Origin: an uncultured bacterium
GTDB lineage: Bacteria; Abyssobacteria; SURF-5
Reading direction: 5' to 3'
Assembly (NCBI GenBank): GCA_964607485.1
Contig: CAZSKP010000015.1
Coordinates: 1 to 64,000 of the forward strand
Length of the DNA: 64,000 nt
The position numbers and the translations under genes were made by a program. Of the stretch, positions 1,861 to 64,000 are shown piece by piece (position 1 is the first letter of the stretch; every line of letters begins with the position of its first letter). The notes below the pieces were generated by a model. It was not told where the DNA came from. It saw only the letters and a list, made by a program, of their open reading frames with translations, and did not search any database.

Positions 1861-1937
1861 GACCAGCTTGGTTTGCGCTCGCCGACGCGCGGGTGGTATC
1901 ATAGTATCGGCCCGCATCTGAACGGAGAAGACACGAA

Positions 1938-3326: not shown

Positions 3327-3378
3327 GACCGACGCTGTTCTTCGAAATTCCACCAATCCCAACGCCCCACGGCGGGTT

Positions 3379-3762: not shown

Positions 3763-3843
3763 CCATATCTCCTTCTTAAATAGGAACAGACCCTTTTCTT
3801 TTCCCGGGGAGAGTTTGCGGTGAGTGCGTGCGCCGAATGCTCT

Positions 3844-4992: not shown

Positions 4993-5085
4993 CTTATAAT
5001 TTTCCTTTTCTCAGGAACCGAATTTCAAGGGAAGCTGTGCGAACGGCAATAAGAGCGGAACGGCTCGACTTATTGGGATTATATT

Positions 5086-5598: not shown

Positions 5599-5611
5599 GG
5601 TCGCCAAGAGA

Positions 5612-7042
5612 CTAGGGGACATCCAACACGATTGACTGATAAAAGTTCTTCATCTTCCAGGAAAGCGGAACCCCCTGGGGATAATTGGCCACGAAGTACG
5701 GGACCTTGACGTACGGATTCTGCTGGTCGAACCTGGCATAGTAACTGTTTATTATCACGTAGCAGTTCGCGAGCTGGTCGGCGGAGCGGACGTCATACAG
5801 GTTGTGGAACCGGTCGGGCTTTAGCTTGAAGCCCGACGTTATCCTCAGTATGGCCGTCGTGCGAAGGTCGGCATAGATGGGCTTCGGCGGCATCGTTCTC
5901 AAATACTCCTCCACCTTTCGCATGTTCCCGCCGCAAAGCTCGGGGGTCATGTTGGACGAGTATGAATACGGTTTCAGCAGGTACAGAGAAGTTCCCAGCA
6001 CCGCGACCACCACGGCCGAGCGATACCACCCCCGCAGCTGCATGAGCGCCCATGCGGCCAGCAGCATCAAGGGCACTGTGGCGAAGTTGAGGAACTTGCG
6101 CACTTTCACAATCGGAATAAGAGGGTGAAGACTCACGACGCCGAATTGCAGAATCAAGAGGATGGTTCCGGCCCACGCCAGAAGTATGAGCGCGCCGCGC
6201 TCGCGCTTGACGGCGCCGAGGATCATTGCGGGCACAAAGAGGAAGAAATACGGGCCGAAAACGGTCAAGTTCTGGAATACGACCGTCGGGTAGTACCACT
6301 GGCTGGTCGAACATTCGCCCGAGGTGTTGACGGCGATGGCCGCCTTCGCGTTCAGCCGAAAATTGTGCAGCGGGCTCAGCCCGTTCATAACATAATACAG
6401 GCTTTCTGAGAAGACAACCGCCAGAAACCCGGCCACGAACAACAGATGCGAGGACCTCAGTTTCTTCTCGAAGAAAGCGGTGTAGATGAGCAGAAAGGGG
6501 ATGAGAATAACCGCCATCGAACGGCAGGAGTATGCTATCGCCAGCAGCAGACCCGACAAGAAAAAGAGCGCAGGCCTGTATCTCTCGCTTCGGCCCGCCC
6601 GGATGAAGGCGAGAACCGATGCGGCCATCAGGAAGGAAAGCGGAATGTCGGGAAGTATCAACCCGGAATAGTGAATGTCAAGAGGATAGAACGCCAGGAG
6701 CAGGGCTGCGAGCAATCCGGTCCGTGCGTTGAGCACGGACTTGCCCAGGAAGAAGCACACCACCACCGCTCCGAGCGCGCTCAACATCGGCCAGAGCGCC
6801 GCCGAGAACTCGTTCGTCCCGAACAGCTCGTACGATGCAGCGATGGGCAGGAGCATGCCGTAGCGGGTCATCCAGTAGTTGCCGGACGGGTGGTAGGTTC
6901 CCTCGTATATCTGGTACGCGGCAAGGTAATAGTCGTGGTCGTCGCTGCCGATGGGCCCGGTGTAGAATGCAAGGCGCAGCCCGAGCGCCAGGAGTACAAT
7001 CAAGCAGAGAATAACGGCGTCTGCGTATCTCGGCCGCCTCAA
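5612..7042 (-). CDS. GT-C membrane glycosyltransferase (ArnT/PMT family 39-like)
   Basis: Polytopic membrane protein with LRL...SDD-DYY in the first loop and LFGTNEFSA; TTG start. Confidence 0.8.
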   Translation of the reverse strand: MRRPRYADAVILCLIVLLALGLRLAFYTGPIGSDDHDYYLAAYQIYEGTYHPSGNYWMTRYGMLLPIAASYELFGTNEFSAALWPMLSALGAVVVCFFLGKSVLNARTGLLAALLLAFYPLDIHYSGLILPDIPLSFLMAASVLAFIRAGRSERYRPALFFLSGLLLAIAYSCRSMAVILIPFLLIYTAFFEKKLRSSHLLFVAGFLAVVFSESLYYVMNGLSPLHNFRLNAKAAIAVNTSGECSTSQWYYPTVVFQNLTVFGPYFFLFVPAMILGAVKRERGALILLAWAGTILLILQFGVVSLHPLIPIVKVRKFLNFATVPLMLLAAWALMQLRGWYRSAVVVAVLGTSLYLLKPYSYSSNMTPELCGGNMRKVEEYLRTMPPKPIYADLRTTAILRITSGFKLKPDRFHNLYDVRSADQLANCYVIINSYYARFDQQNPYVKVPYFVANYPQGVPLSWKMKNFYQSIVLDVP

Positions 7043-7052
7043 TTGGCGCTCC

Positions 7053-8336
7053 TCACATGCTCGTGGCTTTTCGCGTTACCTTGATGGCGCAGAACTCGCC
7101 GCACATCGTGCAAACTTCACTGTCCGCCGGACGACTGCTCTCGCGCAGCGCGCGCGCCTTCTCCGGGTCTATCGCGAGCGCGATCTGGCCTTCCCAATCG
7201 AGCTTCTTCCGACATCGGGCCATGGCATTGTCGCGTTCGATAGCGCCGGGAACGCCCCGCGCGACATCGGCGGCATGGGCGGCTATGCGGGATGCTATGA
7301 CGCCTTCTCTTACGTCCTCCACGGTGGGAAGCCTCAGGTGTTCGGACGGCGTGACGTAGCACAGGAAGTCTGCGCCCGCCAACGCAGCCAGCGCTCCGCC
7401 TATGGCGGCGGTGATGTGGTCGTATCCGGGCGCGATGTCTGTGACGAGCGGGCCGAGCACATAGAACGGCGCGCCCCGACAGAGCCTTTTCTGGAGGACC
7501 ATGTTGGCCTCTATCTGGTCGAGGGGAACGTGGCCGGGCCCCTCGCACATCACCTGCACCCCGGCCTCCCAACAGCGCTCGACGAGTTCCCCTTGCAGAA
7601 TCAGCTCTTGAACCTGCCCTCTGTCGGTCGCGTCGGCGAGACATCCCGGGCGCATCCCGTCGCCCAGGCTGAGCGACATGTCGTACTTTTTGGCGATGGA
7701 GAGCAATCGGTCGAAATGCTCGTACAGGGGGTTCTCCTTCTTGTTGAAGGCCATCCACTCGAGCATCAGCGCACCGCCCCGGCTGACGATGTCGAGTATG
7801 CGCGCGTGTTTCTTCAGCCGGGCGACCGACTCCTGCGTGACGGTGCAGTGCACCGTAACGAAGTCCACGCCCGCGCTCGCATGTTGTTCGATGGTTTCGA
7901 AAATCTCGTCGGCTTCGAGTTCGACGAAGGATTTTCCCCGCTGCCTGGCATACAAAGCGGCTTGGTAAATCGGAACGGTTCCCACGGGGACGGTGGAGCG
8001 CGCGAGCACCTCGCCGAGCACGTCGGCCACCGGGCCGCCCACGCTCAGGTCCATAACCGTGTCGGCGCCCGCTGCAATTGCGACCTCGAGCTTCTGCATG
8101 TCCTCCTTGATGTCCGCGTGGTCGCCTGAGGTGCCGATGTTGGCGTTGACCTTTGTCCTGAGGCCTTTGCCGATTGCCAGCGTATCAGCGTTCGGATGGC
8201 GATTGTTACGCGTGATGATAATGCTGCCCTCGGCGATTCCCTGCTTTATGTATTCGGGAGAACGCCTTTCGGCTTCGGCCACCTGTTCCATTTCTGTCGT
8301 GATGACGCCCTGTCTGGCTTTCAAAAGCTGAGTCAT
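7053..8336 (-). CDS. thiC: Phosphomethylpyrimidine synthase ThiC
   Basis: MTQLLKARQG start, TKVNANIGTS, ADTVMDLS, SRGG, LGDGMRPG, EGPGH, PGYDHIT, CYVTPSEHL and CTMCGEFC. The 634-aa ORF in the track over-extends upstream. Confidence 0.97.
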   Translation of the reverse strand: MTQLLKARQGVITTEMEQVAEAERRSPEYIKQGIAEGSIIITRNNRHPNADTLAIGKGLRTKVNANIGTSGDHADIKEDMQKLEVAIAAGADTVMDLSVGGPVADVLGEVLARSTVPVGTVPIYQAALYARQRGKSFVELEADEIFETIEQHASAGVDFVTVHCTVTQESVARLKKHARILDIVSRGGALMLEWMAFNKKENPLYEHFDRLLSIAKKYDMSLSLGDGMRPGCLADATDRGQVQELILQGELVERCWEAGVQVMCEGPGHVPLDQIEANMVLQKRLCRGAPFYVLGPLVTDIAPGYDHITAAIGGALAALAGADFLCYVTPSEHLRLPTVEDVREGVIASRIAAHAADVARGVPGAIERDNAMARCRKKLDWEGQIALAIDPEKARALRESSRPADSEVCTMCGEFCAIKVTRKATSM

Positions 8337-8341
8337 TCGAA

Positions 8342-9004
8342 TCAACCTTTCTTTTCCGCAAGTGTTCGGGCCGCGAGGGCTTCTCGCAGGCGTTTCACAA
8401 TTTCGGAGGCGGCCGCTTCGACATCGGGAGCGGACAGAACGGACGAAATCATCCCGATTCCCGCCGCGCCAGCTGATACTACCTCTTCGATCTCGGACGC
8501 TCCAATGCCGCCCAGCGGGAAGACGGGCAGTCTGACGGTTCCGCACACCGTGCGCAGCGACTCCACCCCGACGGGCGGGCCGTACCGCGCCTTCGACGGA
8601 GTATGATAGACTGGTCCATAGGTGATGAAATCGGCGCCCTTTTCCGCCGCCTCCATCGCTTCCGCGACGCTGTGAGTGGAAACACCTATGAGCATTCCCG
8701 GCCCGAGCACCTTCCGGCAGACATCGGCGGGCAGCCCATCCTGCGGCAAATGCACGCCGTCGGCTCCAATGGCGCGCGCCAGCGAGGCGTTGCCGTTGAC
8801 GAAAAGCTTCGCCTGGAATTCGGACGTCAAGCGGCGGAGTTCGGTGCCCAGCTCGAATCGCTCGCGCGTCGAGAGGTCCTTCTCGCGCAACTGGACCGCG
8901 CGCACGCCTCCACGCAGGGCTCGCTCCACCCCGGAGACCAGGTCGCCGCCCCCGCACTGATTCCGGTCGGTTATCAGGTATAGATCAAACTCAACTCGCG
9001 GCAA
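8342..9004 (-). CDS. thiE: Thiamine-phosphate synthase ThiE
   Basis: [34 protein letters not shown] and LGGI motifs; thi operon context. Confidence 0.9.
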
Positions 9005-9770
9005 TGGCTCCCTCCAGCGGGCTGCTGGCCGTCGCGTATAGTTTGCGGGGGATGCGGCCCGCGAGGAACGCCTTCCGGCCCGAATCGACGGCCAGCCGCA
9101 TCGCCTCGGCCATCAACACGGGGTCCTTCGCGCCCGCGACCCCGGTGTTCATCAGCACGCCGTCCACGCCGAGCTCCATCGCGATTGCCGCGTCCGACGC
9201 CGTTCCGACGCCGGCGTCCACGATGACGGGCACCTTGGCGTTCTCGACGATTATCCGAATGTTGTAAGGGTTGCGCACCCCGAGCCCGGAGCCGATGGGC
9301 GCCGCCAGCGGCATGACCGCCGCGCATCCCACATCCTCCAGCTTCTTGCACATAATCGGGTCGTCGTTGGTGTAGGGCATGACGATGAAGCCCTCTTTGA
9401 CCAACACCCTGGCGGCTTCGAGGAGGCCCTGGTTGTCGGGAAACAGCGTCTTCTCGTCTCCGATGACCTCGAGCTTCACCATGTCGGAGAGGCCCGCCTC
9501 TCTTCCCAGACGCGCTGTCCTGATGGCGTCCTCGGCCGTGTAGCAGCCGGCCGTGTTGGGCAGGAGCGCGTATTTGTTCGCGTCGATGTAGTCCAGCAGC
9601 GACTCCTTGCTCCTGTCTGAGATGTTTATCCGGCGAACGGCGACAGTGACGATCTCGGCTCCGGACTTCTCGAGTGCCTCGCGCATGAGCTCGAATGTCG
9701 CGTACTTGCCCGTCCCGATCAGCAGGCGCGAGCGGAATTTGCGACCGGCGATAACAAGTTCATCTGTCAT
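8991..9770 (-). CDS. thiG: Thiazole synthase ThiG
   Basis: [34 protein letters not shown] and [10 protein letters not shown]. Confidence 0.97.
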
Positions 9771-9997
9771 TATTCGTACCCCCAGACGTTATGATGGTTT
9801 CCTCCGCCAACGAAATGGACGACCTCGAGCTGGTCGCCTTCTTTGAGCGACGTCGTGGCATACTGCTCTTTCGGGAGAATGTTCAGGTTGAGCTCCACCG
9901 CGACGCGGGCTTCCTGAATTCCCAATCGCTCCAGCAAACCGGCGACCGTCAGGCCGTCGGGGCTCTCATACGACTCACCGTTCAACCGAATCCGCAT
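9770..9997 (-). CDS. thiS: Sulfur carrier protein ThiS (with C-terminal extension)
   Basis: MRIRLNGE...VAVELN...[14 protein letters not shown], followed by NHHNVWGYE. The stop overlaps the thiG start (TAATG). Confidence 0.92.
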
Positions 9998-10014
9998 TGG
10001 CCGTCGAGCGCTCC

Positions 10015-10048
10015 AAAAAAAACGCCGCACTCCCGTAGGAAATGCGGC
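10015..10048 (-). terminator. Intrinsic terminator, expression platform of the TPP riboswitch
   Basis: Minus strand GCCGCATTTCC-TAC-GGGAGTGCGGC-G-TTTTTTTT, between the aptamer and thiS. Confidence 0.85.
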
Positions 10049-10085
10049 CCTGAACTCATCATTTTCAGCGAAAGCAGCTTCTCTG

Positions 10086-10170
10086 TCCGCTTCCCTACGC
10101 TGGAATTACCCAGATCAGGTTCGAAGGGTTGTCACGAAGACTCTCAGTGTCTCAGCACACCCCTAGCTCA
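10086..10170 (-). ncRNA. TPP riboswitch (THI element)
   Basis: Minus strand GCTAGGGGTG...CTGAGA...ACCCTTCGAACCTGATCTGGGTAATTCCAGCGTAGGGAAGC, upstream of thiS. Confidence 0.95.
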
Positions 10171-10175
10171 CCATA

Positions 10176-10204
10176 ATTCTAACACGCCGCGGGGACGGTG
10201 TCAA
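10176..10204 (-). promoter_or_regulatory. Sigma-70 promoter for the thi leader
   Basis: TTGACA-17 nt-TAGAAT immediately upstream of the riboswitch. Confidence 0.8.
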
Positions 10205-10348
10205 GAAACCAGGGAATCCCCTGTTTTGACCTCTCTTTCTTTTCTCTTCTTACGGACGGTTTGTGACGGCCAAAAACCTCGGAAATTGATGCTTGATGGA
10301 GTATTACACATGGTCGTTGAAAAAAAGGAGGGGAAGGCGTAAGAGAGA

Positions 10349-11320
10349 TTAGATTAGACGCAAGGTATGGTGAAAGAGCTCTGTGAAAAAATCTTCCCGC
10401 ACCTCCGGTTTTTCAAGAATTTCGATAATGCTGAACTTTTTCTCAACGAGACGGTCTTCGCCAATACGCCTTTCTAGCTCGGGAGTGTAAACGGCTCCAA
10501 GGTAAAAGTTCTTGCATCGTGGGCTTGCTTGGATTGCGTGTTGAAACGACTTTGTTGCAGCACCGTAACGTTCCAGAGCTCCGGCGGGGTCCGTTCCACC
10601 TTTGATTTCGATAACGACGGCTAAAACGTCTCCTTGGGTGAATGAAATATCTGGTTCCGAGCCGAATCGCATGATGCTATTATCCCGCAGAGTGCATACA
10701 CGAGGGATACTTTCGTAAACCTTTTGCTTGCTCAGTTCAGGTTCAAGAATAAGGTTCTTTTCAATCAGCCATTCAAGGATAAGGGTTCGGATTCGCTCTT
10801 CAGCTATTTCACCAACCTTGTTCCGCATTCTACCATCGAGGGTTATGCCCAGGTTAGCAATGATTGTGCGGTTGCCGTCCTCAAGGGTCCAATCAGTAGA
10901 ATTCTTGATAATAGAACAAATAAAGACATTATAGGTTCGAGCCATTTTGAGAGCTTTTTCACTACTCAATCGGGCTCGAGGATTGCCCGCCTCGAGAGAA
11001 TCAACAGATCCGAAGTACCCTCTAACAGCCTTTAAAGAGAGGCCGCAAAGGCCTCGGTAGTAGAAACTCGTAACCGGTCTTTCCAAGAGTATGTCCGGAT
11101 GACAGAAAACAAACTTGGGATCATATCCTTGGGCTGTTACGGCATATTCCCATACCTCAGGGTCGATCGAAAGATTACTGAACGGTTTCCACTTAAGATG
11201 TGAGGAAAACTCTTGAATGAGCTTGACGGCTTGAAGGTCGTTCCGTTTCTGGAGAGAAGTGACAATCAATAGCGACTTGATGCGGCGCAGTTCATCTGAG
11301 TAAGGGTTTGATTCTGACAT
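10349..11320 (-). CDS. Type II restriction endonuclease, PD-(D/E)xK (XcyI/AvaI-BsoBI-like)
   Basis: EPDISF...IEIKGGTDPAGA catalytic motif; directly downstream of a DNA methyltransferase; visibly AT-richer than its flanks. Confidence 0.8.
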   Translation of the reverse strand: MSESNPYSDELRRIKSLLIVTSLQKRNDLQAVKLIQEFSSHLKWKPFSNLSIDPEVWEYAVTAQGYDPKFVFCHPDILLERPVTSFYYRGLCGLSLKAVRGYFGSVDSLEAGNPRARLSSEKALKMARTYNVFICSIIKNSTDWTLEDGNRTIIANLGITLDGRMRNKVGEIAEERIRTLILEWLIEKNLILEPELSKQKVYESIPRVCTLRDNSIMRFGSEPDISFTQGDVLAVVIEIKGGTDPAGALERYGAATKSFQHAIQASPRCKNFYLGAVYTPELERRIGEDRLVEKKFSIIEILEKPEVREDFFTELFHHTLRLI

Positions 11321-11346
11321 GACCTAAGTGTCTTGTTCGCGGTTCG

Positions 11347-12801
11347 TTATTGATTCGTCGGTTTTGACCAGACATAGACGCACTTGCGAATTTCGTTTCG
11401 TCCGTAAGCTCCCATCTGCTGGCTGCTGTTTCCTTTCCCTCGCGAGAGGGTCCAAATATGGTCGATTGACAGTCCGGCACTGTCAGCAAAGTCCGAAAGG
11501 ATGAGGTCAACCGGGACTTCTTCGCCATTGTATTGGACGTTGTCGTTAACCATTACAATGCGTCCACCGGGAGCGAGAACGCGGGAAAGTTCCCTTATAA
11601 CCAGATTCATCTCAAGAAAATAATTCTCCACCATTATGGGGATGTTGTTGTTGTTAAGACCGCCGTTTTCACGGCTATTGTATAAGATCTGCAAAACCTC
11701 GTGTAAAGCCTCCTGTCCATTGAAGGCCTCTACAGCGGCTCCAAAGAGATCGCTCTGGTTGCGGGAGCTGTACTCTTGTGCTAGTTGCTCACGTTTCGAT
11801 TTATTCTCCACGGTGCTGGAGAGGAGGGTTTGGCGTAACCTCTTGAGTGCAACTTCGTCATATCCCCAAAATGCCAATTCAAGGGCGTAGGTTCGTGTGT
11901 AGTCATAACGGTTACAATAGGGAGGAGAAGTTATAATCAAATCATAAAAGGAATCAGGAAGCAGGGGAAGTCTTGTAAGACAAGAGCCTTCGATGATTTC
12001 CACGTAAGAGGACACAACTTCATCGTTTCGCTTCTTAATGTCCTCCAACATTACTCGTAATTGGCGGAGGATAGCTTCCCTAAAATCGGGGATATTACCC
12101 TTATTAAATTTTGATCTTAGAGACCTACTGGAGCGAGAATCCCAACGTAAATACTGACCGTCCTTGCGCGTGTAGCTTATTTCCTCCAGTATTGCCAGAC
12201 AGGCAAACCAGAACAAGAAGCGCACGTCGACGTTTCGGATTGAAGCAAGGAAGCTGTTGTAGGCTGAAAGGGCTATTTCTGTGTTTCTTGGAAAAGCTCC
12301 TCTGGTGATTTGCAGATGAGGAAAGTTGAATCTTTTCCCATAGCAGAAATCTAGAGGGACTTTTTCGAGCTTTTCCAAGTGGTACTCGAAGGATCGGATA
12401 CTTACCGTGTCAGCCAAGATCCGGGCCCGAATAGCGGCTACCCCCACGGGAAGGAGCTCAATGCCTGTCGCCATCCATCCAGCCCTTGCTGAGGTTGTTA
12501 GGGTTGTTCCAGCACCGGCAAATGGGTCCAGAACTTTGGGAGTCGAACCCGGGATTACATGGAAGTGGTCAAGAAAATACCGAACAAGTTGGGAAGAAAA
12601 TGCTTCCTTATATTTCAGCCAACGATAGAAAGGAGCACTCTTATTAGCTTGAAAAGAAACCAAGGTGCGGGAAAGGTCTGGATTTGCTGTAAGCTCACTC
12701 GCGTATCGGCGGTACAGTATTGCTCTCTTGGATTGCGATGATCGAATAGTAATTACTTGCGGTTTGTCATTAGACTTTATTGCGAATGATTTCTGCTTCA
12801 A
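11347..12801 (-). CDS. Site-specific DNA methyltransferase, N4-cytosine type, alpha motif order
   Basis: Motif I VLDPFAGAGTT precedes motif IV ITSPPY(CNRYDYTRTYALEL); FYRWLKYKEAFS; TTG start. Confidence 0.9.
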   Translation of the reverse strand: MKQKSFAIKSNDKPQVITIRSSQSKRAILYRRYASELTANPDLSRTLVSFQANKSAPFYRWLKYKEAFSSQLVRYFLDHFHVIPGSTPKVLDPFAGAGTTLTTSARAGWMATGIELLPVGVAAIRARILADTVSIRSFEYHLEKLEKVPLDFCYGKRFNFPHLQITRGAFPRNTEIALSAYNSFLASIRNVDVRFLFWFACLAILEEISYTRKDGQYLRWDSRSSRSLRSKFNKGNIPDFREAILRQLRVMLEDIKKRNDEVVSSYVEIIEGSCLTRLPLLPDSFYDLIITSPPYCNRYDYTRTYALELAFWGYDEVALKRLRQTLLSSTVENKSKREQLAQEYSSRNQSDLFGAAVEAFNGQEALHEVLQILYNSRENGGLNNNNIPIMVENYFLEMNLVIRELSRVLAPGGRIVMVNDNVQYNGEEVPVDLILSDFADSAGLSIDHIWTLSRGKGNSSQQMGAYGRNEIRKCVYVWSKPTNQ

Positions 12802-12859
12802 AGTCAGAACATTCCCCGAGACCTAAGAGAATTTTTCGAATACCGCATCTCCATTTTCA

Positions 12860-12887
12860 ATTATAGTGAATAAACTCGAAATGTCAA
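12860..12887 (-). promoter_or_regulatory. Sigma-70 promoter for the R-M operon
   Basis: TTGACA-16 nt-TATAAT on the minus strand. Confidence 0.65.
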
Positions 12888-12938
12888 GTCCCGAATTATC
12901 GGGCAAGATACGACGCTGGAAAACCCTGATGCATTAGC

Positions 12939-13181
12939 TCAGGAAGAGTATTTCTCTTCCAGGTACTTGTTTATGTCGTCCGACTCGTACATGCGGACGT
13001 CGTTGTCCGTATCGATCAGGAACGGGACCTGCACCTTGCCGCCGAGTTTTTCGAGAAGCGCTTCCTTCTTGCTGCCTGAATCACGCACGTTGCGGCAGAT
13101 GTAGTCCAAGTCCAATTCGGTCATCTTGGCGCGTACCTTCTGGCAATACGGGCATCCTTCTTTTTGGTAAAGTTCGAGCAT
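12939..13181 (-). CDS. Glutaredoxin / GST N-terminal domain protein
   Basis: MLELYQKEGCPYC, GGKVQVPFLID and MYESDDI; SD AGGAGG before ATG 13181. Confidence 0.9.
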   Translation of the reverse strand: MLELYQKEGCPYCQKVRAKMTELDLDYICRNVRDSGSKKEALLEKLGGKVQVPFLIDTDNDVRMYESDDINKYLEEKYSS

Positions 13182-56536: not shown

Positions 56537-57160
56537 TTATTTCTGTTCGTCCAGCTTGACGCGGGTGCTGATGAACACGTGGTCGTCCTCTATCGAGTAG
56601 GCGAGACCGGTCTGCTGACAGATGCGCGTTATGATGGTCCTGAGCGGCAGCGGGTTGTCTGTCCTGATGCTGACTTCCGAATCCAGCAGGCCCTTGGATT
56701 CGGCGAGCACCGTCTCATCCACTATGATGTTCACATCGGTCAAGAATGTAAGCGACTTGGCGACGTTGCGGACGTCCTCCTCCGAGAAATCCACCTGAAC
56801 CAGTTGATTCAGCTTCTGGTAAAACTTGTCCTGGGCCTCGCCCTTGTCCTTTATCTCTTCGATGACTTTCTTGCAGCACTCTATCGATTCATCCACCATG
56901 CGATCGATGCCGTGTGGACGCTCGTCGGGCAGGTTGGGATAATCTTTCCAGATGTTCTCGTACCCGCGGAGCGCCTCTCTGTACTTCCGCAGCGCGAGCG
57001 CGTAGTCCTTTCCCTCGAGCGCTTCCGCAGCCTGTTCCTCTATGGGTTTCACCTCGTGCAGAAACACGAACAGCGCGGATTTTTGAATCTCGAACGCCCC
57101 GACCTCGACCGAGGTCATGCACGACAACAGGACGATGAGAAGCAACGTCGCTCGCTTCAT
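56537..57160 (-). CDS. Exported protein: helical (TPR-like) domain plus secretin/TonB N-terminal (STN-like) domain
   Basis: Signal peptide; KDYALALRKYREAL helix pair; C-terminal VDF...VNIIVD...PLRTII..I..GLAYSIEDDHVFIS pattern. Confidence 0.6.
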   Translation of the reverse strand: MKRATLLLIVLLSCMTSVEVGAFEIQKSALFVFLHEVKPIEEQAAEALEGKDYALALRKYREALRGYENIWKDYPNLPDERPHGIDRMVDESIECCKKVIEEIKDKGEAQDKFYQKLNQLVQVDFSEEDVRNVAKSLTFLTDVNIIVDETVLAESKGLLDSEVSIRTDNPLPLRTIITRICQQTGLAYSIEDDHVFISTRVKLDEQK

Positions 57161-57864
57161 CGGCTTTCACCCGACAGCAAATTGCGGAAAGTTCCCGAAA
57201 TGTTGTCGTAGATGTGCTCCAACCCATGTTTGCCGAACTCTATCAGCTTCAGCGGATTGGCGGCGATCTCGAGGCGGCCGGCCTTGACGGCGTCGATTAT
57301 GGCCTCCGTGTTTTTTTCGGCCTCGACGAGCGAGTAGGCCGAGCCGAATTTCTCCAGGTGATGACAATCGGACGTGCACACCAGCGGGAGCCCATGCTTC
57401 GCGGCCGTCCGGAGGGCGAACATGTTGAAATTTATCCGGCTGTGATAGAACCATGAAAATTCTAACGCATCAAACACATCGATGTTTCTTCCCACAAGCC
57501 ACATGAGAGAAGAAAAGTCGGGGAAATATGGATGAGGAGCCACGACCATATTCTCAGGAGTTCGGAGCCTCCTCAGGTCGTCAAGGCTGCGTGCCTCGAG
57601 GATTTCATCGCGCGCGTTCACAACAAGCACGTGCTTTCCCCGGATATTCGCCTCGACGCCCGGAATGAGAACAATTCCCCGCTCACGCGCATAGTCCCGC
57701 AGATAGCTGCTGAAAGAAACGGCGTTGTGATTCGTGATGCTTATCGCGTCGAATCCCAGGTAGTACGCCTTATCTATCAACTCACAGCTTGTGTGCAGGA
57801 CTGGCTCTTCCGGGTCGTCTGCAGTGTGTGTATGAAGGTCGACTTTCAGAAATTTCTTGGGCAT
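57157..57864 (-). CDS. PHP domain metal-dependent phosphoesterase
   Basis: VDLHTHT, ITNHN, PGVE, APHPY and SDCH; start uncertain (57864, 57885 or 57906). Confidence 0.88.
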   Translation of the reverse strand: MPKKFLKVDLHTHTADDPEEPVLHTSCELIDKAYYLGFDAISITNHNAVSFSSYLRDYARERGIVLIPGVEANIRGKHVLVVNARDEILEARSLDDLRRLRTPENMVVAPHPYFPDFSSLMWLVGRNIDVFDALEFSWFYHSRINFNMFALRTAAKHGLPLVCTSDCHHLEKFGSAYSLVEAEKNTEAIIDAVKAGRLEIAANPLKLIEFGKHGLEHIYDNISGTFRNLLSGESR

Positions 57865-57963
57865 CTCAACTTCGATTTCTCTCATCAGGCGAAGCTTCTC
57901 CCACAATTTTAGTTGTGCAAAACAGATTTGTCAACGATGCCAGTGTTACATCAGTTATTCTGG

Positions 57964-58007: not shown

Positions 58008-58036
58008 TTGACTTTTCATATTTCGGGAAATATAAT
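58008..58036 (+). promoter_or_regulatory. Sigma-70 promoter of the kinase-Clp operon
   Basis: TTGACT-17 nt-TATAAT. Confidence 0.8.
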
Positions 58037-58081
58037 GCGGAAGGAGCGGAGTGTGTCCCAACTCTGAGGGAGGGGGCTCTG

Positions 58082-60286
58082 GTGTTCGATATTGGCCAGT
58101 GGATTGAAGACCAATATCTCGTCCTCGAACGACACCGCGGCAGGCGGTGGACCGTCTATGTGGTGCAGGACCGCATTTCGGAGAATGTGTTCGTCATCAA
58201 GAGACCCTCGGAAGTTCTGCTTCCCGACCCCCTCGCGGCGGACCATTTCGTCAACGAAGCGAGAATCTGGATAAACATCGGCGAATGCGATGAGGTCGTC
58301 AACGCGTACCTTATCAAGGAGTTTGAGGGAATACCCCACCTGTTCCTTGAGTACACTGACGGCCCCAGTCTCGAAGACATCCTAAGCTCGCGCCCCGGGA
58401 AACCGCTCCCCACCGACCAGGCCGTCGCCCTCATGAGGCAGCTCATTAACGGCATGAAGTTTCTTCATTCGGCGAGTCTGACGCCTGGAAATCGGGGTGT
58501 CGTACACGGCAGCCTGACCCCCCACGCCATCTTGACCAAATCGGGGAACATCAAGATAACCGACGTCGGCCTGGCCCACGCGTTGCGCCAGTCTTCCAGG
58601 ATGCTTAATGCCGGCCACTTTCTCTGGGACATTTCATACATGGCGCCCGAGCAGTTACAGGACCTCCGCGAGGCCGACAAACTGACCGATATTTACTCGT
58701 TCGGTGCAATAATGTACGAAGTCGCGACGGGTACGTCGCCGATGATGGGGAAAAAACCCGAGGACCCCTTGAGCGACATCGTCCGGTTCGAGCCGGCTCA
58801 CCCCCGGACGCGCAATCGCTCGTGCCCTCGGTGGCTGGAGGAAACGATTCTGAAATGCATGGCGCGGGAGCGGGCAAACCGCTTCCAGAGCTTCGAGCTG
58901 ATTGACGCGTTCGTGAGCGAAGTGCTCAGGGGAGAGGAGGAAGCCTCGCCGGCTCGTGACGCGAAGGAGGAAACGGATTCCGCCCATACCTCGCGGGTGG
59001 CGCGTGTGCGCGGAGTGGCGAAGAAGGAATCGCGCCGGCTCGACCACTATTACGTCGGCGTCGAACACCTGATGCTCGGCCTCATTGCCGAAGAGGAAAG
59101 CGTCGTTGTGAGTTGTTTCGGCGACGCGGTAGACGCGGAACGGCTCCGTTCGGAAATTCTCTCCCATTTGCCGAAGGGGGAGGGGCCGTGGTATTGGGAC
59201 GATATAAGAAAGACCCCGCGGTACAAACGCGTAATGAAGCTGGCGCGCAAGATAAAACGGGAACACAGCGACGACCGCATGCTCCCACAACACATCCTCC
59301 TCGCGATACTGAAGGAGGGACGGAACGTGCCGGTCCGCGTGCTCAAGGGATTGAACGTCGATGTCAAAGCCGCGGCCCGAAACCTGCGGCGGGAGATGAA
59401 GCGCAGAAGGCCGGCAATCTTCGTTGCCGATTCCGAACCTGGCGCGATTAGTTTCACGATCAAGGTGGCCTGCACGACCGACATCCCCTGTTCCATTCCC
59501 TTCGTCGGCCGGCGCTCGGAACTGGAAAGAGCTCGCGGGCTGCTCCTCGACGACAGAAGAAGCGTCATGATAGTGGGCGAACCGGGGGTCGGAAAGACGG
59601 CCTTCGTGCACGAACTTGAGTGTCTTGTTTCGGAAGCGTCGGGCGACGCAGGGCGCGAGAGCGGCGGCCTGGTCAAACTTCACGTCGCGTCCCTCATCGC
59701 GAGCACCGAGGGAGGGGAACAGATTATCTCTAATCTCACGGACGCCATCAACTCGGTCGTCGGTTCCAAATCCATCCTGGTGATAGAGGACCTTCCGGTG
59801 GTTGTCGGCCTCGGCGGAAAACTGCCGCCGGGGGCTGTCGGCAGGATGCTCGAAGAGTACATCGTGTCCAAAGGGCTGGTCGTCGTGGCAACGACCACGC
59901 GCGCAGGGTACGTGTCGTGCGAAGCGGAGCACGAGAACCTGGTCCCGTTTCTCGAAGTGATAAACCTGCGCGAGCCTTCGAGTGAAGAGACGTTCGAGAT
60001 GCTGGTGGCGGCGAAGGAGACTCTTGAGAACGAGCACTCCGTCAGGATCGTCGATGAGGCGCTGACCGCCTCGGTCGACCTTTCGCGAGAGATCCAGGGG
60101 AGAGCGCTTCCTGCAAGGGCGTTCGAGCTGCTCGACCGCGCATGCGTCGGCGCGAGGTTGAGCGCAAGCACGCCTGAGCAGGCTCGCGAGCAGATCGTCA
60201 TCGATGCGGAACGAGTGGAATATGCCCTGGCCGAAGCTCGGCAGCTCGAGCGGGCTCGGTCCGACCAAGAGCGTGGAGTCGTATAG
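58082..60286 (+). CDS. Fusion protein: Ser/Thr pseudokinase + Clp N-terminal repeat domain + ClpA/B/C NBD1-like AAA+ domain
   Basis: Kinase part: VIK, FVNEARIW, KITDVGLA, YMAPEQ, DIYSFG. ClpN: HYYVGVEHLMLGL and TPRYKRVMKLA...QHILLAIL. AAA+: FVGR, GEPGVGKT, LPARAFELLDRAC. Start placed at GTG 58082 (SD GGAGG, downstream of the promoter). Confidence 0.88.
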   Translation: MFDIGQWIEDQYLVLERHRGRRWTVYVVQDRISENVFVIKRPSEVLLPDPLAADHFVNEARIWINIGECDEVVNAYLIKEFEGIPHLFLEYTDGPSLEDILSSRPGKPLPTDQAVALMRQLINGMKFLHSASLTPGNRGVVHGSLTPHAILTKSGNIKITDVGLAHALRQSSRMLNAGHFLWDISYMAPEQLQDLREADKLTDIYSFGAIMYEVATGTSPMMGKKPEDPLSDIVRFEPAHPRTRNRSCPRWLEETILKCMARERANRFQSFELIDAFVSEVLRGEEEASPARDAKEETDSAHTSRVARVRGVAKKESRRLDHYYVGVEHLMLGLIAEEESVVVSCFGDAVDAERLRSEILSHLPKGEGPWYWDDIRKTPRYKRVMKLARKIKREHSDDRMLPQHILLAILKEGRNVPVRVLKGLNVDVKAAARNLRREMKRRRPAIFVADSEPGAISFTIKVACTTDIPCSIPFVGRRSELERARGLLLDDRRSVMIVGEPGVGKTAFVHELECLVSEASGDAGRESGGLVKLHVASLIASTEGGEQIISNLTDAINSVVGSKSILVIEDLPVVVGLGGKLPPGAVGRMLEEYIVSKGLVVVATTTRAGYVSCEAEHENLVPFLEVINLREPSSEETFEMLVAAKETLENEHSVRIVDEALTASVDLSREIQGRALPARAFELLDRACVGARLSASTPEQAREQIVIDAERVEYALAEARQLERARSDQERGVV

Positions 60287-60637
60287 TTGAAGTCCGACAA
60301 GTCCCCCGCCGGGAAAACCGATAAAATCATCGTCGAGGTCATGAACGGGCCTGAGGACGGGCGCGTTGTCGTGTGCGACAAGATTCCTGTATCGATAGGC
60401 AGAGGAACCGACAACCGAGTATGCATTCCCTACGACCATCTCGTTTCGCGGCATCACGCCAAGATCGCAGGATCAGAGGGTAAGTTTCTCCTGTGCGATT
60501 TGAACAGCACCAACGGCACTTTCGTGGGGAGCGAACGGGTTCGGGAAGACACGCCCATTGAGCCCAACAAGCTGTTTCGCGTGGGCGCGACCCTGCTGAT
60601 GCTCAAACTCCGCTCAGCCGACGCATCGCCGAAATAG
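60287..60637 (+). CDS. Stand-alone FHA domain protein
   Basis: IGR, VSRHHA and DLNSTNGTFV; the TTG start abuts the upstream stop. Confidence 0.93.
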   Translation: MKSDKSPAGKTDKIIVEVMNGPEDGRVVVCDKIPVSIGRGTDNRVCIPYDHLVSRHHAKIAGSEGKFLLCDLNSTNGTFVGSERVREDTPIEPNKLFRVGATLLMLKLRSADASPK

Positions 60638-60646
60638 ACGAGGAGC

Positions 60647-62557
60647 GTGACGTCCATGGCACATGAGAAGGAGCCTGCGGCCGCCCGAAATCGTACGAAA
60701 CACCGCCGCAAGCTTCCCTGCGCCAACCACCCGAGAAATCCCGCCGCAGCCCGCTGCGAGGTCTGTGGAAATCCGATATGCAGGGAGTGCGTGCAGTTCT
60801 ACGACGGCGCGCACATCTGCGGTGAGCTGTGCTGGAACAAGAAGCGGTTGGACGAATCGGCAAAAGCCTCCAAAGAGGACAGGCTCCGGCGGCGACAAAA
60901 GGAAAAGAAAGCAAACCGTGCCGTGACGGTGGGGCTGTTGGCGGCGCTGGTCGTGGTTCTGGGGGCGGTCGGCGCTTTCGTGTACACTGTCGTGTCCGAC
61001 CACTCGGGAGACAAAGCCTGGGAATTCGAGAATCCGGGAGGGTCCTTCGATTACGCGGTCCGACCGAACCTGAACTCCGTCTTCCTTCTGTCGGCGGACG
61101 GAAACGTAGAGACAATCGACGCCTTGACCGGCGTGCTAAAATGGCGCGTCAAATTGCCCGAGAGGTCCGGCCACTCGGAACTGATGATAATCGATGAAGA
61201 CCACTGTCTCGTCTATTTCGGGAACACGGTCTTGCTCTGTAAATCGGGCCGAGCGGCGCCGGCGTGGGAATTCAGTGCACCACAGCCTTTTCTGTGCGCC
61301 GAGCCGGTGCATTTGGATGACCGTCTCTACGCGGTAAGCTCCCCGGTCGGCTCCTTCTTCCAGGTGTTTCCCGAGCTGGAAGAGATGAGGTCTGCGCTCT
61401 TGATGTCTCCCGAGCTCGAATCGCTGAGGTCCGTGGTCCGGGCGCCGAGGCCGCAGTCAGATTCGGCCGGCGCAATCCCGCCCCCACGGGAACAACCGGA
61501 GACGGCCGGCGAGCAAGCCGAAGTGGAGCGGCTCTCCACGGTCAGCGCCGTGGACATGGCCTCCGGCAAAGGACTGTGGGACACCGAACTGGTAGGTCTT
61601 AGGGTCGAGGGCCTGCTGGCGGATGAAAGTCGGGTCTACGCGGTCGGCTATCAGTGGAGAGAATACGGGAGGTACGGCGCGGCCCCGGAACCGGAAGAGC
61701 CCAAACAGGAGGACTCCGCCGGCGACCAAGAAGCCTCACACGTCAGCTCCACCCAGCTTTGGGCGCTGAACGCGACAACCGGCGAGCCGGAGTGGAAGCT
61801 GGAAGGGATGGGCAATTTTCTGGTTTCTCCCATGAAGAGCGACGAGGGCATCGTCTTCTCGACAATGGAGAATATCTACTTGATCTCGCCCGAGGGAAAG
61901 ATAAAATGGAAATATTCCCTCGGCGAGAGAGGTGTTTACGCGTTTCAGCCGAGCTATGACAAGCTCTTTGTCTCAACGGGCGACGGATTCCTTGTCTGCA
62001 TCGACCTCGCCTCCGGACGCGAAAAGTGGACGACCGAGGTCGGCATGGGAGCCGACAGGATAGTCGTCAGTTCTCCGCTCGCATACGTCTCGTCACTGGT
62101 CAAGGTGGAGAAGGAAGCCCGGAGAGTAATAATGACGAAACGCTGGAAGGGGTCGGAGGACCTGTTGAAAAAAGCGCTGAAGCGAGACGAAGTGAGCTAT
62201 GAAAGAGTCATCCACGGCATCGACGTCGAGAGCGGTGAGACGCGCTGGTCGATTCCGAAGATCGAGGGCGAGTTCGAATATGGGCGGGGATTTCTGTACG
62301 CGTTGCGCTATTTCGAGAGGCTGCAACTCCTCGATGCCTCGGTCGACTCCAGCCAGATAGCCAAGACGGTGTCGAATCTGGGCGCGTACGACTGCCTGAC
62401 CGGCGAGAAAGTCTGGGAGACCGGTATTGACGGCTACGCATCGGACCTGCGTCTGACCCCATTCGTCGGCATCGTGAAGTCACGCTCGCAAGTGCTTACC
62501 GTCGGCGCGGCGGCCGAACAGCGTCCCGGACGCCTGATCGGAATTTCTCTCGAGTGA
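60647..62557 (+). CDS. B-box-type zinc finger + single TM + PQQ/BamB-like beta-propeller protein
   Basis: CANHP...CEVCGNPICREC...CGELC; hydrophobic span; repeated (A/C)-x-(D/N)-x-x-(T/S)G-x-x-x-W docking motifs. The start may be ATG 60656. Confidence 0.85.
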   Translation: MTSMAHEKEPAAARNRTKHRRKLPCANHPRNPAAARCEVCGNPICRECVQFYDGAHICGELCWNKKRLDESAKASKEDRLRRRQKEKKANRAVTVGLLAALVVVLGAVGAFVYTVVSDHSGDKAWEFENPGGSFDYAVRPNLNSVFLLSADGNVETIDALTGVLKWRVKLPERSGHSELMIIDEDHCLVYFGNTVLLCKSGRAAPAWEFSAPQPFLCAEPVHLDDRLYAVSSPVGSFFQVFPELEEMRSALLMSPELESLRSVVRAPRPQSDSAGAIPPPREQPETAGEQAEVERLSTVSAVDMASGKGLWDTELVGLRVEGLLADESRVYAVGYQWREYGRYGAAPEPEEPKQEDSAGDQEASHVSSTQLWALNATTGEPEWKLEGMGNFLVSPMKSDEGIVFSTMENIYLISPEGKIKWKYSLGERGVYAFQPSYDKLFVSTGDGFLVCIDLASGREKWTTEVGMGADRIVVSSPLAYVSSLVKVEKEARRVIMTKRWKGSEDLLKKALKRDEVSYERVIHGIDVESGETRWSIPKIEGEFEYGRGFLYALRYFERLQLLDASVDSSQIAKTVSNLGAYDCLTGEKVWETGIDGYASDLRLTPFVGIVKSRSQVLTVGAAAEQRPGRLIGISLE

Positions 62558-62583
62558 ACGGCAGATGAACAATCTGGGAGACT

Positions 62584-63708
62584 ATGACCGGGAACAGGAG
62601 AAAAGAGGCAGGTCCCTCCCGCGGCGAGGCCGTCGCCAACTACATCACCGACCTTCTTAAGAACTCTATCGAGATAGTCACCGACTATTCCTGCAAGTAT
62701 CATCCCGACCGCGCCGCCACCGCCGTCTGCGAATGGTGCAGCGCCGACCTTTGCTCCGATTGCGCGCACGTTCGAGGCCATCGGCTCGTGTGCCGCAATT
62801 GCATGGGCTCACTCGACAGGACGTTTGCGGGAACGGGCGCCGCGTCGGTTCTGACGCGGCTGCTCACGCACCCAATTGTGGTCGCATTGGTGCTGACGAC
62901 ATTGCTCGGAGGCCTGCTCGTCGGCCTCGGCAGGATTCATCGCAAGGGACTGCTGGGGGAAGTTCCGGCGACCGCCAGCGGGGTCGAAAAACAGTTTCGT
63001 CTGAAGCTCGTCCTGTATGCGCAGAAAGCCGACCGCATCGAAACCCACGCCGATGAACTCCAGAAAGTCGGCCGCACCGATGAGGCGGCGGCGGACTATG
63101 ACCGCGCCAGGTCCATCCACGAGATGCTGGCCCGCGAGGCCGCCGGCAGATGGGAGGAGCAGGCTTTCACTCTGGCGAGAGCGAGAATCCTGGAAAAAAC
63201 GGGCGAACGCGCCTATGCCCAAGGGCTGTACGAAAACGTCGCCAACCTGCCCGGCGCAGACAAAACCTATCCCGTCATCGCGCAGTTTCATCTGGCCAAA
63301 CTCCAGGAAAAGACGAACCCGGAAGAGGCGGTGGCGACGTACACGCGACTCCTGCGCGACGTCAACTTCGTTCCCGACAATTTCTCCCGCGCGGTCAACA
63401 TGATGGCGCATTCGCAGGGCGCTTACAACTACGACAGCCGGATACAATTTCACACGCGCACCGACTTCGATTTCGACACGGTCAAAGTGGAGACGCTGCT
63501 GGAGATGGGTCGGCTGTTGGCTGCTATGGGACGTACCGACGAGGCTGCGTTCAGACTGGGGCAGGCGGCCAACGAGGGATTTGGCACGAAGCTGGGCGAG
63601 CAGGCCACGGCTGAACTCAGGAAGCTCCACACCGTCGATGTGCCCGAGGAACCTCCCGAAGAAGAGGCCGAGAAAGAAGAAGAACTGACCATAACTCACT
63701 TCGACTGA
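62584..63708 (+). CDS. B-box-type zinc finger + single TM + TPR-like protein
   Basis: CKYHP...CEWCSADLCSDC...CRNC; TM IVVALVLTTLLGGLLVGL; repeated helical hairpins (LARARILEKTG, FHLAKLQE, LEMGRLLAAMGR). Confidence 0.82.
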   Translation: MTGNRRKEAGPSRGEAVANYITDLLKNSIEIVTDYSCKYHPDRAATAVCEWCSADLCSDCAHVRGHRLVCRNCMGSLDRTFAGTGAASVLTRLLTHPIVVALVLTTLLGGLLVGLGRIHRKGLLGEVPATASGVEKQFRLKLVLYAQKADRIETHADELQKVGRTDEAAADYDRARSIHEMLAREAAGRWEEQAFTLARARILEKTGERAYAQGLYENVANLPGADKTYPVIAQFHLAKLQEKTNPEEAVATYTRLLRDVNFVPDNFSRAVNMMAHSQGAYNYDSRIQFHTRTDFDFDTVKVETLLEMGRLLAAMGRTDEAAFRLGQAANEGFGTKLGEQATAELRKLHTVDVPEEPPEEEAEKEEELTITHFD

Positions 63709-63744
63709 CGCCCGCGGCCGCTGCTGACGTCATGAGGACGGAAT

Positions 63745-64000
63745 ATGCTTTTTCCGGTCAAAATTGAGACAGAGATAGAAAAGTTTCCGATCTTCACCTA
63801 TCTCATAATAGTCGCAAACGCGGTCGTATTCCTGTCCATGCGGTTCCTTCCCGCGTCGGCGCTGGAAATGGCGTATTACGATTACGGATTCATCCCCGAC
63901 CACATCGACGCCGTCTCGATGTTCACGTCGCTGTTTGTCCACGCGGGCTGGCTGCACATCGTTGGCAACATGTATTTTCTGTGGCTGTTTGGGCGGGCGG
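63745..64000 (+). CDS. Rhomboid family intramembrane serine protease (runs off the window end)
   Basis: Not in the ORF track. Translation from ATG 63745 is MLFPVK...PIFTYLIIVANAVVF...YGFIP...FTSLFVHAGWLHIVGNMYFLWLFG. Confidence 0.92.
   Translation, partial: MLFPVKIETEIEKFPIFTYLIIVANAVVFLSMRFLPASALEMAYYDYGFIPDHIDAVSMFTSLFVHAGWLHIVGNMYFLWLFGRA

Follow-up and report, generated by a model that had tools for sequence, protein, structure and literature searches.

The window analyzed here comprises the first 64,000 nucleotides (nt) of the 110-kb contig CAZSKP010000015.1 (GenBank assembly GCA_964607485.1), which derives from an uncultured bacterium of the Abyssobacteria (GTDB lineage SURF-5); the next 20 kb downstream were also examined. 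Near the downstream end of the window lies an operon of five genes, designated g1 to g5, whose products are, respectively, a pseudokinase fused to a double ClpN domain and a degenerate AAA+ module, an FHA-only protein, two membrane proteins bearing B-box-type zinc fingers, and a rhomboid (Table 1). The domain inventory proposed in a first-pass annotation made from the sequence letters was borne out by Pfam and NCBIfam searches, with the kinase of g1 proving to be a pseudokinase.

The five open reading frames (ORFs) are all situated on the plus strand, and the gaps separating g1-g2, g2-g3, g3-g4, and g4-g5 amount to 0, 9, 26, and 36 nt, respectively, thus upholding the earlier description of a tightly packed, co-oriented run of genes behind one near-consensus promoter-like site. 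Promoter-like sites number six across the 7-kb stretch, compared to 1.8 ± 1.2 in shuffled sequences. A search for sequencing runs returned four DNA runs from a single study and no RNA run. Because the g1 promoter falls within the longest g1 ORF, because a ribosome-binding site (GAGGGAGGGGG, positions 58065 to 58075) is followed, after 7 nt, by the GTG codon at 58082, and because initiation at this codon yields MFDIGQW, in agreement with the family consensus N terminus MF(D/E)IGQW at which most relatives begin, GTG 58082 is most likely the true start of g1. At the distal end of the operon, the g5 stop codon is located at contig position 64965, approximately 1 kb past the window, and the convergent gene cstA follows after a further 15 nt. 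The suggestion that the operon might continue beyond the genes seen in the window was, therefore, not borne out; g5 is the last gene, and the operon is considered to consist of exactly five genes because cstA directly follows it.

TABLE 1 Features of the g1 to g5 operon and its upstream region, and related loci (aa, amino acids; TM, transmembrane segment; G000, window genome; C and L prefixes, contigs and loci)
Feature	Position	Strand	Basis or remark
g1, pseudokinase-double ClpN-degenerate D1-type AAA+ with lid, 734 aa	58082..60286 (longest ORF from 57974)	+	Pfam, alignments; ORF list
g1 pseudokinase domain, residues 1-285	58082..58936	+	
g1 double ClpN domain, residues 304-442	58991..59407	+	Most conserved part of g1
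g1 D1-like AAA+ module plus lid, residues 473-715	59498..60226	+	
g2, FHA-only, 116 aa	60287..60637	+	Pfam; ORF list
g3, B-box/TM/PQQ propeller, 636 aa	60647..62557	+	Pfam; ORF list
g3 two-zinc B-box, residues 22-63	60710-60835	+	Ligands invariant in 10/10 orthologs
g3 TM, residues 93-111	60923-60979	+	After basic juxtamembrane stretch
g4, B-box-like finger/TM/TPR, 374 aa	62584..63708	+	Pfam, ligand alignment; ORF list
g4 B-box-like finger (C37, H40, C49, C52, C57, C60, C70, C73)	62692-62802	+	
g4 C-terminal I-T-H-F	63691-63702	+	Invariant in 9/9 orthologs
g5, rhomboid, 406 aa	63745..64000 (ends 64965)	+	Pfam; ORF list; only first 85 aa inside window
Sigma-70-like promoter TTGACT-17-TATAAT	58008..58036	+	11/12 consensus matches
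Second promoter-like site, toward PHP gene	57934-57906	-	Back to back with g1 promoter
Divergent PHP-family phosphoesterase gene	57157..57906	-	Common intergenic region with g1; conserved neighbor, not claimed for the system
Other B-box loci of G000, four scanned (L032-L034)	C21:34894; C40:39561; C45:2266; C45:15894		Fifth ORF on C55
FHA -> ClpN-TCAD9 pairs	L048:7600-9902; L066:7602-9905; L094:170-2466; L098:2560-4833; L102:100-2403; L103:7607-9905; L110:7601-9883; L114:7530-9884		

In Pfam searches, g1 matched Pkinase (9.9e-26), Clp_N (9.5e-19, in two stretches), and AAA_lid_9 (7.9e-14), with AAA_16 lying over the P-loop, and the state of its motifs was assessed by comparison with solved ClpC, with an active kinase-ClpN paralog of the same genome, and across 32 family members. 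The β3 Lys of the kinase domain is present in all 32 relatives and the Asp of the DxG motif (D[IV]G) in 31 of them; HRD is replaced by HG[N/S/G/V], the catalytic Asp persisting in only 2/32, such that the window protein reads HGSLTPHA where the paralog has HRDLKPSN, and the Gly-rich loop (GxGxxG) has degenerated to RGRRW or variants thereof. As regards the AAA+ module, Walker A is mostly intact (Lys in 31/32), and the Walker B DE pair occurs in none of the 32 relatives (ED in 25, EN in 3, EG in 2, and DD in 2; ILVIEDLP versus ILFIDELH in ClpC). The pore loop is acidic, variable, and devoid of the ClpC Tyr (in the window, EGGEQII for KYRGEFE), and the Arg-finger pair is absent from the window protein (VPFLE versus ERRFQ in ClpC), an RR pair being found in only 3/32 relatives. 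Furthermore, g1 ends after the D1 lid, with no M-domain and no Pfam match to AAA_2 or the small D2 domain, and the NCBIfam ClpB and ClpA models reach approximately 100 bits against cutoffs of 993 to 1,232; lacking a D2 ring, g1 would have no ClpP-docking ring. The assignment of a Clp-type AAA+ module to g1 consequently stands for the fold and falls for an intact catalytic ring, for which Walker B, the pore loop, and D2 are missing. As for that fold, residues 304 to 727 align with the N-terminal domain (NTD) and D1 of Bacillus subtilis ClpC (3e-34; Walker A identical), the Clp_N part corresponding to ClpC residues 6 to 137. For g1, AlphaFold produced a compact and confidently predicted model (predicted local distance difference test, 81; predicted template modeling score, 0.81), whose Foldseek matches are headed by ClpC and otherwise consist only of ClpC/Hsp104 and PknB-type kinases, with the kinase domain matching Staphylococcus aureus PknB (4eqm) at a Foldseek TM score of 0.84. 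Judged by its motifs, both the kinase and the AAA+ ring of g1 are catalytically dead, with nucleotide binding as the most that the ring would retain.

The majority-residue fraction is 0.79 and 0.73 in the two ClpN repeats, compared to 0.66 in the kinase and 0.58 and 0.56 in the AAA+ module, and 37 of the 139 ClpN columns are invariant among the 32 relatives; on these alignments, the ClpN domain and the kinase C-lobe of g1 are under constraint. Repeat 1 carries GVEH in 32/32 relatives, its Glu aligning with E32 of ClpC (pArg2 pocket), and repeat 2 carries PQH in 31/32, with Gln at the position of E106. According to the available text of a study of ClpC, the residues crucial to its two phospho-arginine (pArg) pockets are E32 and E106 (PMC12583610). 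The window genome, which is 97.5% complete, contains ClpC and ClpB, and because a gene for an McsB-type arginine kinase is positioned directly upstream of the real clpC (G000:C8:134648-136861), pArg marking is probably present in this Gram-negative-type lineage. The same genome is rich in Ser/Thr signaling, yielding 17 FHA matches and 13 matches to g1 at an E value of ≤1e-20, mostly to the kinase domain alone. The kinase-ClpN paralog mentioned above is 446 aa in length, is 31% identical to g1 residues 9 to 436, and is apparently active, with HRD and DFG intact; its cluster (G000:C20; L031:103-8677) places genes for VWA-FecR-FHA-DUF6982, CHASE2-cyclase-kinase, and FHA-GAF-cyclase proteins around it.

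The remaining four proteins of the operon appear to be functional. g2 matches Pfam FHA (3.4e-15), and its predicted phosphothreonine (pThr)-binding set, made up of G38-R39 (the Gly-Arg motif), S54 and H57 (Ser-x-x-His), and N76, together with G77 (Asn-Gly), is invariant in 10/10 orthologs. The best NCBIfam match of g2 is FhaB/FipA (5.6e-20), which at 72 bits lies below the cutoff of 125.

For g3, Pfam returned zf-B_box (25.6 bits; cutoff, 24.1) and PQQ_2 (4e-18), and its C-terminal part is predicted to form a periplasmic PQQ/BamB-like β-propeller with two low-complexity inserts. On account of the Lys/Arg bias around its TM (5 to 9 such residues before the TM versus 1 to 4 after it, in 9/10 orthologs with a scored TM), g3 is predicted to adopt an N-in/C-out topology, with the finger inside and the propeller outside. 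g4 was assigned to TPR families by Pfam, with zf-B_box reaching only 17.0 bits, under the cutoff; its eight Cys/His residues, the putative zinc ligands, are nevertheless invariant in 9/9 orthologs and spaced as in g3, in the cross-brace pattern of B-boxes, and the two fingers share 29% identity across 38 residues. Beyond the finger, g4 comprises a TM (residues ~97 to 119), a TPR solenoid (residues 129 to 351), an acidic linker, and the C-terminal I-T-H-F, which may represent a docking peptide. The charge balance of g4 leaves its topology ambiguous, and we infer a cytoplasmic location for its finger because the eight ligands must stay reduced. The structural model of g4 contains a confident TPR solenoid whose Foldseek neighbors are generic TPR proteins only (YfgM, TMt 0.69; LapB; BamD), and a protein-atlas search likewise led to no clusters other than generic TPR ones (best score, 0.86). 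In the window genome, seven B-box ORFs and three rhomboids are encoded, and in this lineage the B-box finger is apparently a widely used cytoplasmic module. The other finger proteins scanned there have the architectures B-box-DUF6982-TPR, GYF-B-box, and B-box-Yip1, together with a 245-aa B-box protein encoded divergently from a SpoIIE/PP2C phosphatase.

These predicted periplasmic domains are of types common to BAM and Sec-associated factors, and, combined with the FhaB/FipA match of g2 and the precedent of the MviN pseudokinase and FhaA (as given in the available text cited below), they could be taken to indicate a regulator of envelope or cell wall biogenesis resembling MviN-FhaA or FipA, in which the pseudokinase and the FHA protein would tune an envelope assembly machine according to the periplasmic load sensed through BamB- and BamD/YfgM-like domains. 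Such a role is considered improbable, as the periplasmic domains resemble those factors only at the level of generic repeat folds, and no peptidoglycan, lipopolysaccharide, or BAM gene is located in or next to the operon.

The final gene product, g5, matches Pfam Rhomboid (2.1e-27) and a C-terminal TPR. The Ser-His dyad (S127 and H197), H66, and the TM2 residues H71 and N75 are invariant in 9/9 orthologs, and by this motif set, which comprises GxSG in TM4, a His in TM6, and HxxxN in TM2, g5 is predicted to be an active rhomboid protease. A 13-residue N terminus (TM1 beginning at residue 14) is followed by six TM segments and a highly conserved TPR-like tail of ~190 aa, which is predicted to be cytoplasmic because 3 to 5 Lys/Arg residues follow the last TM in all six orthologs where this was scored. 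Relatives of the tail comprise 28 proteins, all from the same family and with at least 58% identity, and the NCBIfam equivalog models for GlpG (22.1 bits versus 250) and rhombosortase (21.7 versus 84) both score under their cutoffs. The presence of a TPR-bearing rhomboid next to a protein of ClpC-type NTD-D1 derivation, in a genome with ClpC, ClpB, and McsB, recalls membrane protein quality control of the YqgP-FtsH type, for which YqgP provides the precedent of a TPR-bearing protease and AAA+ adaptor (PMC7231995, available text). Under such a scheme, the rhomboid would cut or present membrane proteins that are damaged or in surplus, g1 and g2 would serve as adaptors handing the fragments to ClpC/ClpP or FtsH, and g3 and g4, of which the former resembles BamB-type propellers and the latter YfgM, BamD, and LapB generically only, would select clients in the periplasm. 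We regard this explanation as unlikely: g5 has no counterpart of YqgP's N-terminal cytosolic domain, and its TPR tail lies on the cytoplasmic side instead of outside the cell; g1 is devoid of pore loops and of D2, and thus of a ring onto which ClpP could dock; plain quality control would require neither a pseudokinase nor an FHA protein; and the sister family described below does not possess the module, which argues against a general housekeeping need.

A phylum-level search retrieved only 11 species genomes, 10 of which, including the window genome, fall within one family (f1; nine genera), the remaining one representing a second family (f2). A full-length g1 ortholog (50 to 58% identity) is present in 10/10 f1 genomes, g1-g2-g3 occur in constant order in all 10, and all five genes occur in order in 8/10; the co-occurrence of these genes in other genomes, on which their description as one system depends, was thus borne out. 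In the single f2 genome, no g1 was found, matches being obtained only via the real ClpC, g3 and g4 were not found, and the best rhomboid is only 38% identical to g5. Within f1, the genome G002 (97% complete) carries g1-g2-g3 directly abutting cstA, with no g4 and no g5 ortholog, and G010 carries g1-g2-g3a (g3a with 29% identity) on one contig and g3b-g4-g5 on another, g3b being broken across two contig ends. Given this loss and this relocation, g3 appears to pair with either half of the operon and g4/g5 to act as a pair; g1-g2-g3 form a constant core, and g4-g5 form a separable pair. Gene order was also held, as far as the contigs reach, in three family loci among 80 metagenome loci kept, and three close genome-contig loci with like patterns, which may overlap counted genomes, were kept out of the counts. 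Fused relatives of g1 number 30, after which E values fall from 1e-149 to 1e-49, and those of g3 comprise 10 proteins, all of the same family, while the g1 profile, run against 1.84 billion representatives, detected two full-length clusters and five fragments, followed by multi-kinase and Clp proteins. Named relatives are labeled Candidatus Abyssobacteria/Abyssubacteria or Hydrogenedentota. On the basis of these sequence comparisons, the operon is vertically inherited and restricted to one family of a tiny phylum.

Since all of the linkage evidence comes from one family, and since the flanking PHP gene equals the operon in synteny (of the 8 other f1 genomes in which the contig extends far enough, 7 have it upstream of g1), it may be asked whether the five genes are unrelated neighbors without a common function that have stayed side by side owing to the strong synteny within a small clade. 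Little credence is given to this explanation in view of the 0- to 36-nt spacing, the joint loss and joint relocation of g4 and g5 (the latter with a g3 copy), the B-box common to g3 and g4, and the recurrence of FHA beside ClpN/kinase-like proteins in unrelated loci.

That g4 and g5 were lost together and moved together also bears on whether g3 and/or g4 are substrates of the rhomboid, their freed B-box ends being caught by a ClpN/FHA scaffold in a sigma-less analog of RseA-type proteolysis. Both TMs contain Gly, g4 has an invariant His-Pro at the start of its TM, and conserved outer juxtamembrane motifs are apparent in g3 (DHSGEKLWE) and g4 (RKGLL). The architecture of both proteins, moreover, resembles that of anti-sigma factors, in which a cytoplasmic zinc domain is joined through one TM to a periplasmic sensor. 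Bacterial rhomboids with six TMs face the periplasm. In characterized bacterial rhomboid substrates, as described in the available text of PMC2941825, the recognition motif either occupies the outward, N-terminal end of the TM or precedes it, and it is docked in an active site that opens outward. Because g3 is predicted to be N-in, contrary to this motif placement, it is unlikely to be a canonical substrate; in addition, G002 retains g3 without a g5 ortholog. The reading as a whole is held to be distinctly unlikely, and the earlier proposal of g3 as a rhomboid substrate is doubtful. As regards regulated intramembrane proteolysis of the anti-sigma type, the operon contains no cognate sigma factor gene, a sigma factor domain being absent from the five operon proteins and from the scanned flanking genes.

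A combination of FHA, ClpN, and kinase-like proteins was encountered outside the family as well. A metagenome scan employing the ClpN signatures [HQ]YY[LI]GVEH and P[KT]GEGPWxW contributed 77 non-family loci to the 80 kept, of which 61 represent regular ClpC-like genes lacking an FHA in their vicinity and 14 show an FHA match that shares the strand of the ClpN match and lies 28 to 99 nt away from it. All eight complete ClpN ORFs scanned in this latter setting encode ClpN fused to the kinase-like TCAD9 (637 to 652 aa) and are preceded, at a spacing of approximately -4 to +11 nt, by an FHA-only gene whose product (116 to 144 aa) is 30 to 44% identical to g2. The FHA-linked ClpN domains possess the HYY[LI]GVEH signature of g1, and we know of no description of this FHA -> ClpN-TCAD9 pair. 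As an EPSP synthase gene (aroA) is found upstream in at least three of these loci, they possibly represent one lineage. Two further loci display the orders two-ring Clp-FHA-kinase (L041) and SIR2/TPR-FHA-two-ring Clp-kinase/TPR (L113). In light of these unrelated metagenome loci, and of the kinase-ClpN paralog that neighbors FHA proteins in G000, the operon is not the only place where FHA, ClpN, and a kinase-like fold are found together, and this triad seems, from gene order and domain content, to reach well beyond the family. A bolder proposal, which is possible although doubtful, holds that FHA, GVEH-type ClpN, and a kinase-like fold constitute a widespread, undescribed phospho-signaling triad, in which ClpN, removed from its unfoldase setting, would act as a phospho-dependent docking or sensor domain. 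The Abyssubacteria-like family would have added a fossil AAA+ ring to this triad and connected it, by way of B-box membrane receptors, to a rhomboid, thereby giving rise to sigma-independent regulated intramembrane proteolysis.

In L113 (positions 3 to 7425, minus strand), genes for a SIR2_2/TPR protein, a 228-aa FHA protein, a two-ring Clp, and a kinase-TPR protein are accompanied by two more kinase-TPR genes (7827 to 13147, plus strand), and the locus looks like a conflict-type cluster on the FHA-Clp-kinase theme. Independent fusions of Hanks kinases to complete D1+D2 Clp proteins are represented by P0173, P0259, and P0202 (CHAT), one kinase-two-ring Clp fusion, of 2,257 aa, also bearing a CHAT protease domain, and stand-alone ClpN-D1-only proteins exist (P0240; 525 aa). 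The SIR2-TPR gene of the otherwise unrelated L113 and the CHAT protease of P0202, together with the matches of the g1 kinase domain to PD-T4-6 and mad6 in PADLOC 2.0, are the observations that would favor an anti-phage or conflict system. This is very improbable, and the defense role raised in the first-pass annotation is considered weak: the PADLOC matches reflect generic kinase homology confined to the g1 kinase domain, with g2 to g5 matching 0 families; the flanking genes are of housekeeping type (GAPDH, PGK, PNPase, FtsK, and CstA, among neighbors which also include a MiaB-like enzyme, an OAD gamma chain, the PHP protein, and an MMPL transporter); the operon holds a fixed position and is vertically inherited across nine genera; and, with both g1 enzymes dead, its only effector domain is the rhomboid. 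A 207-aa ORF (56537 to 57160, minus strand), with a signal-peptide-like N terminus and no Pfam match, overlaps the end of the PHP gene by 4 nt.

The explanation that we tentatively favor is that the operon encodes a lineage-restricted trans-envelope signaling module, in which a phospho-gated, non-catalytic scaffold is combined with membrane sensors and a rhomboid. The phosphorylation-gated Clp-type scaffold put forward in the first-pass annotation is retained as the most economical reading because g1 is catalytically dead, its ClpN domain is constrained, and it is invariably accompanied by a pThr reader and a zinc finger membrane receptor; the recurrence of FHA beside ClpN/kinase-like proteins lends it indirect support. 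In the proposed signaling module, g3 would act as the hub receptor through its periplasmic propeller, N-in TM, and cytoplasmic B-box, g1 and g2 would form a reader/scaffold pair, and g4 and g5 would constitute a separable submodule providing intramembrane proteolysis. A periplasmic protein cue, sensed by the g3 propeller and the g4 TPR domain, would alter the engagement of the B-box ends with g1, g2, and the rhomboid tail. The assembly of g1 and g2 on the cytoplasmic ends of g3 and g4 would, in turn, be gated by marks written in trans, namely, a pThr mark written by one of the many Hanks kinases of the genome and read by g2, and possibly a pArg mark written by McsB and read by the one intact ClpN pocket of g1. 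The rhomboid, docked through its tail, would serve as the effector and cut a partner or client, and the bound protein would be sequestered, released, or handed to the real ClpC/ClpP or to FtsH. What is shown here is the gene order, the domains, the states of the motifs, the topology of g3 and g5, and the phyletic pattern; we infer all of these contacts, as well as the cue, the rhomboid substrate, and the output.

Several observations weigh against this signaling module. The operon encodes no active kinase, phosphatase, sigma factor, or DNA-binding output, so that its input and output are guesses. The alignments of g1, g3, and g4 contain no convincing conserved Thr as a target for the FHA domain, and pArg binding by the g1 ClpN domain may have been lost, judging from the Gln that replaces the Glu of the second pocket and the Val that takes the place of the ClpC Thr in the first. 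B-box N termini are present on five other ORFs of the window genome, and the finger is therefore possibly a generic module. Lastly, because the gene set is confined to one family, it offers few independent evolutionary replicates, and, because synteny is generally high in this clade, as exemplified by the PHP gene, gene order overstates functional linkage.

For bacterial pseudokinases, as for the majority of bacterial rhomboids, no function is known, and the operon supplies a defined set of candidate partners for both. It also provides a rare case of a kinase fold and a Clp ring which are both without catalysis in one polypeptide, with a strongly constrained ClpN domain between them, a constraint which points to ClpN as a signaling domain in its own right. 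As the same ClpN signature occurs beside FHA genes in unrelated contigs, this idea is testable outside an uncultured lineage. Should the rhomboid be the effector, intramembrane proteolysis would be coupled to the reading of Ser/Thr, and perhaps Arg, phosphorylation, and not to a sigma factor.

Among characterized systems, the closest parallel to the proposed g1-g2 pair is that of MviN, PknB, and FhaA (ActPs3). In Mycobacterium tuberculosis, the pseudokinase of MviN (MurJ) recruits FhaA once PknB has phosphorylated it, according to the available text of a pseudokinase review (PMC12599244), such that in both cases a dead Hanks-type fold would serve, at the membrane, as a docking platform for an FHA-type pThr reader. 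Unlike MviN, g1 is soluble, is joined to ClpN and a decayed AAA+ module in place of a lipid II flippase, and retains the β3 Lys and the DxG Asp. None of the pseudokinase families covered in that text (ActPs1-3, GLW, CP1, DYD, and DLHK) is linked to Clp, AAA, or rhomboid proteins, and in the available text of this 2025 review the terms "AAA" and "rhomboid" do not occur, "Clp" being confined to the references (PMC12599244). With ClpC, g1 shares the NTD-D1 alignment and one pArg-pocket Glu, in a genome that carries mcsB-clpC, and it differs from ClpC in lacking the Walker B DE, the pore-loop Tyr, the M-domain, and D2 and in being fused behind a pseudokinase. A ClpN domain employed outside an unfoldase has its own precedent in ClpC2, a non-proteolytic pArg sensor, as presented in the available text of PMC13345244. 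In the case of g5, the available text on YqgP (GluP) of B. subtilis describes a rhomboid with TPRs which functions both as protease and as adaptor serving FtsH, an AAA+ protease (PMC7231995); g5 likewise combines a rhomboid with TPR repeats, but it has neither the large N-terminal cytosolic metal-sensing domain nor the extracellular C-terminal TPR of YqgP, its own tail being cytoplasmic.

The one well-known bacterial system which joins a kinase of Hanks type, an FHA protein, and an AAA+ protein bearing ClpN is the threonine phosphorylation pathway of type VI secretion systems (T6SSs), made up of PpkA, PppA, and Fha1 with ClpV. The ClpV1 model scores 86 bits on g1 versus 885 and the VI_FHA model 36 bits on g2 versus 120; a T6SS accessory role was rejected, as PF05943 (TssC/VipB) has 0 matches in the window genome and no T6SS genes are found among the neighbors. 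The FHA -> ClpN-TCAD9 pair described above resembles g1-g2 in its three domain types, its ClpN signature, and its small FHA-only partner, and differs from it in that ClpN comes first, the kinase-like part is of TCAD9/APH type and not Hanks type, AAA+ is lacking, and no B-box or rhomboid is found nearby. In the available text of two Aravind-group papers on conflict systems (2020 and 2021), no rhomboid appears, TCAD9 is absent from the 2020 paper, the only one searched for it, and B-box (2021) and ClpN (2020) are named only in passing. A literature search of main texts produced no description of the five-gene set, and PADLOC produced only the generic kinase matches; the view that the set corresponds to no named system is, accordingly, maintained. 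The parts, namely, pseudokinase-FHA scaffolding, the reading of ligands by ClpN, and proteolysis by rhomboids, are of known kinds, and their combination, together with the doubly dead kinase-ClpN-AAA+ protein, is new.

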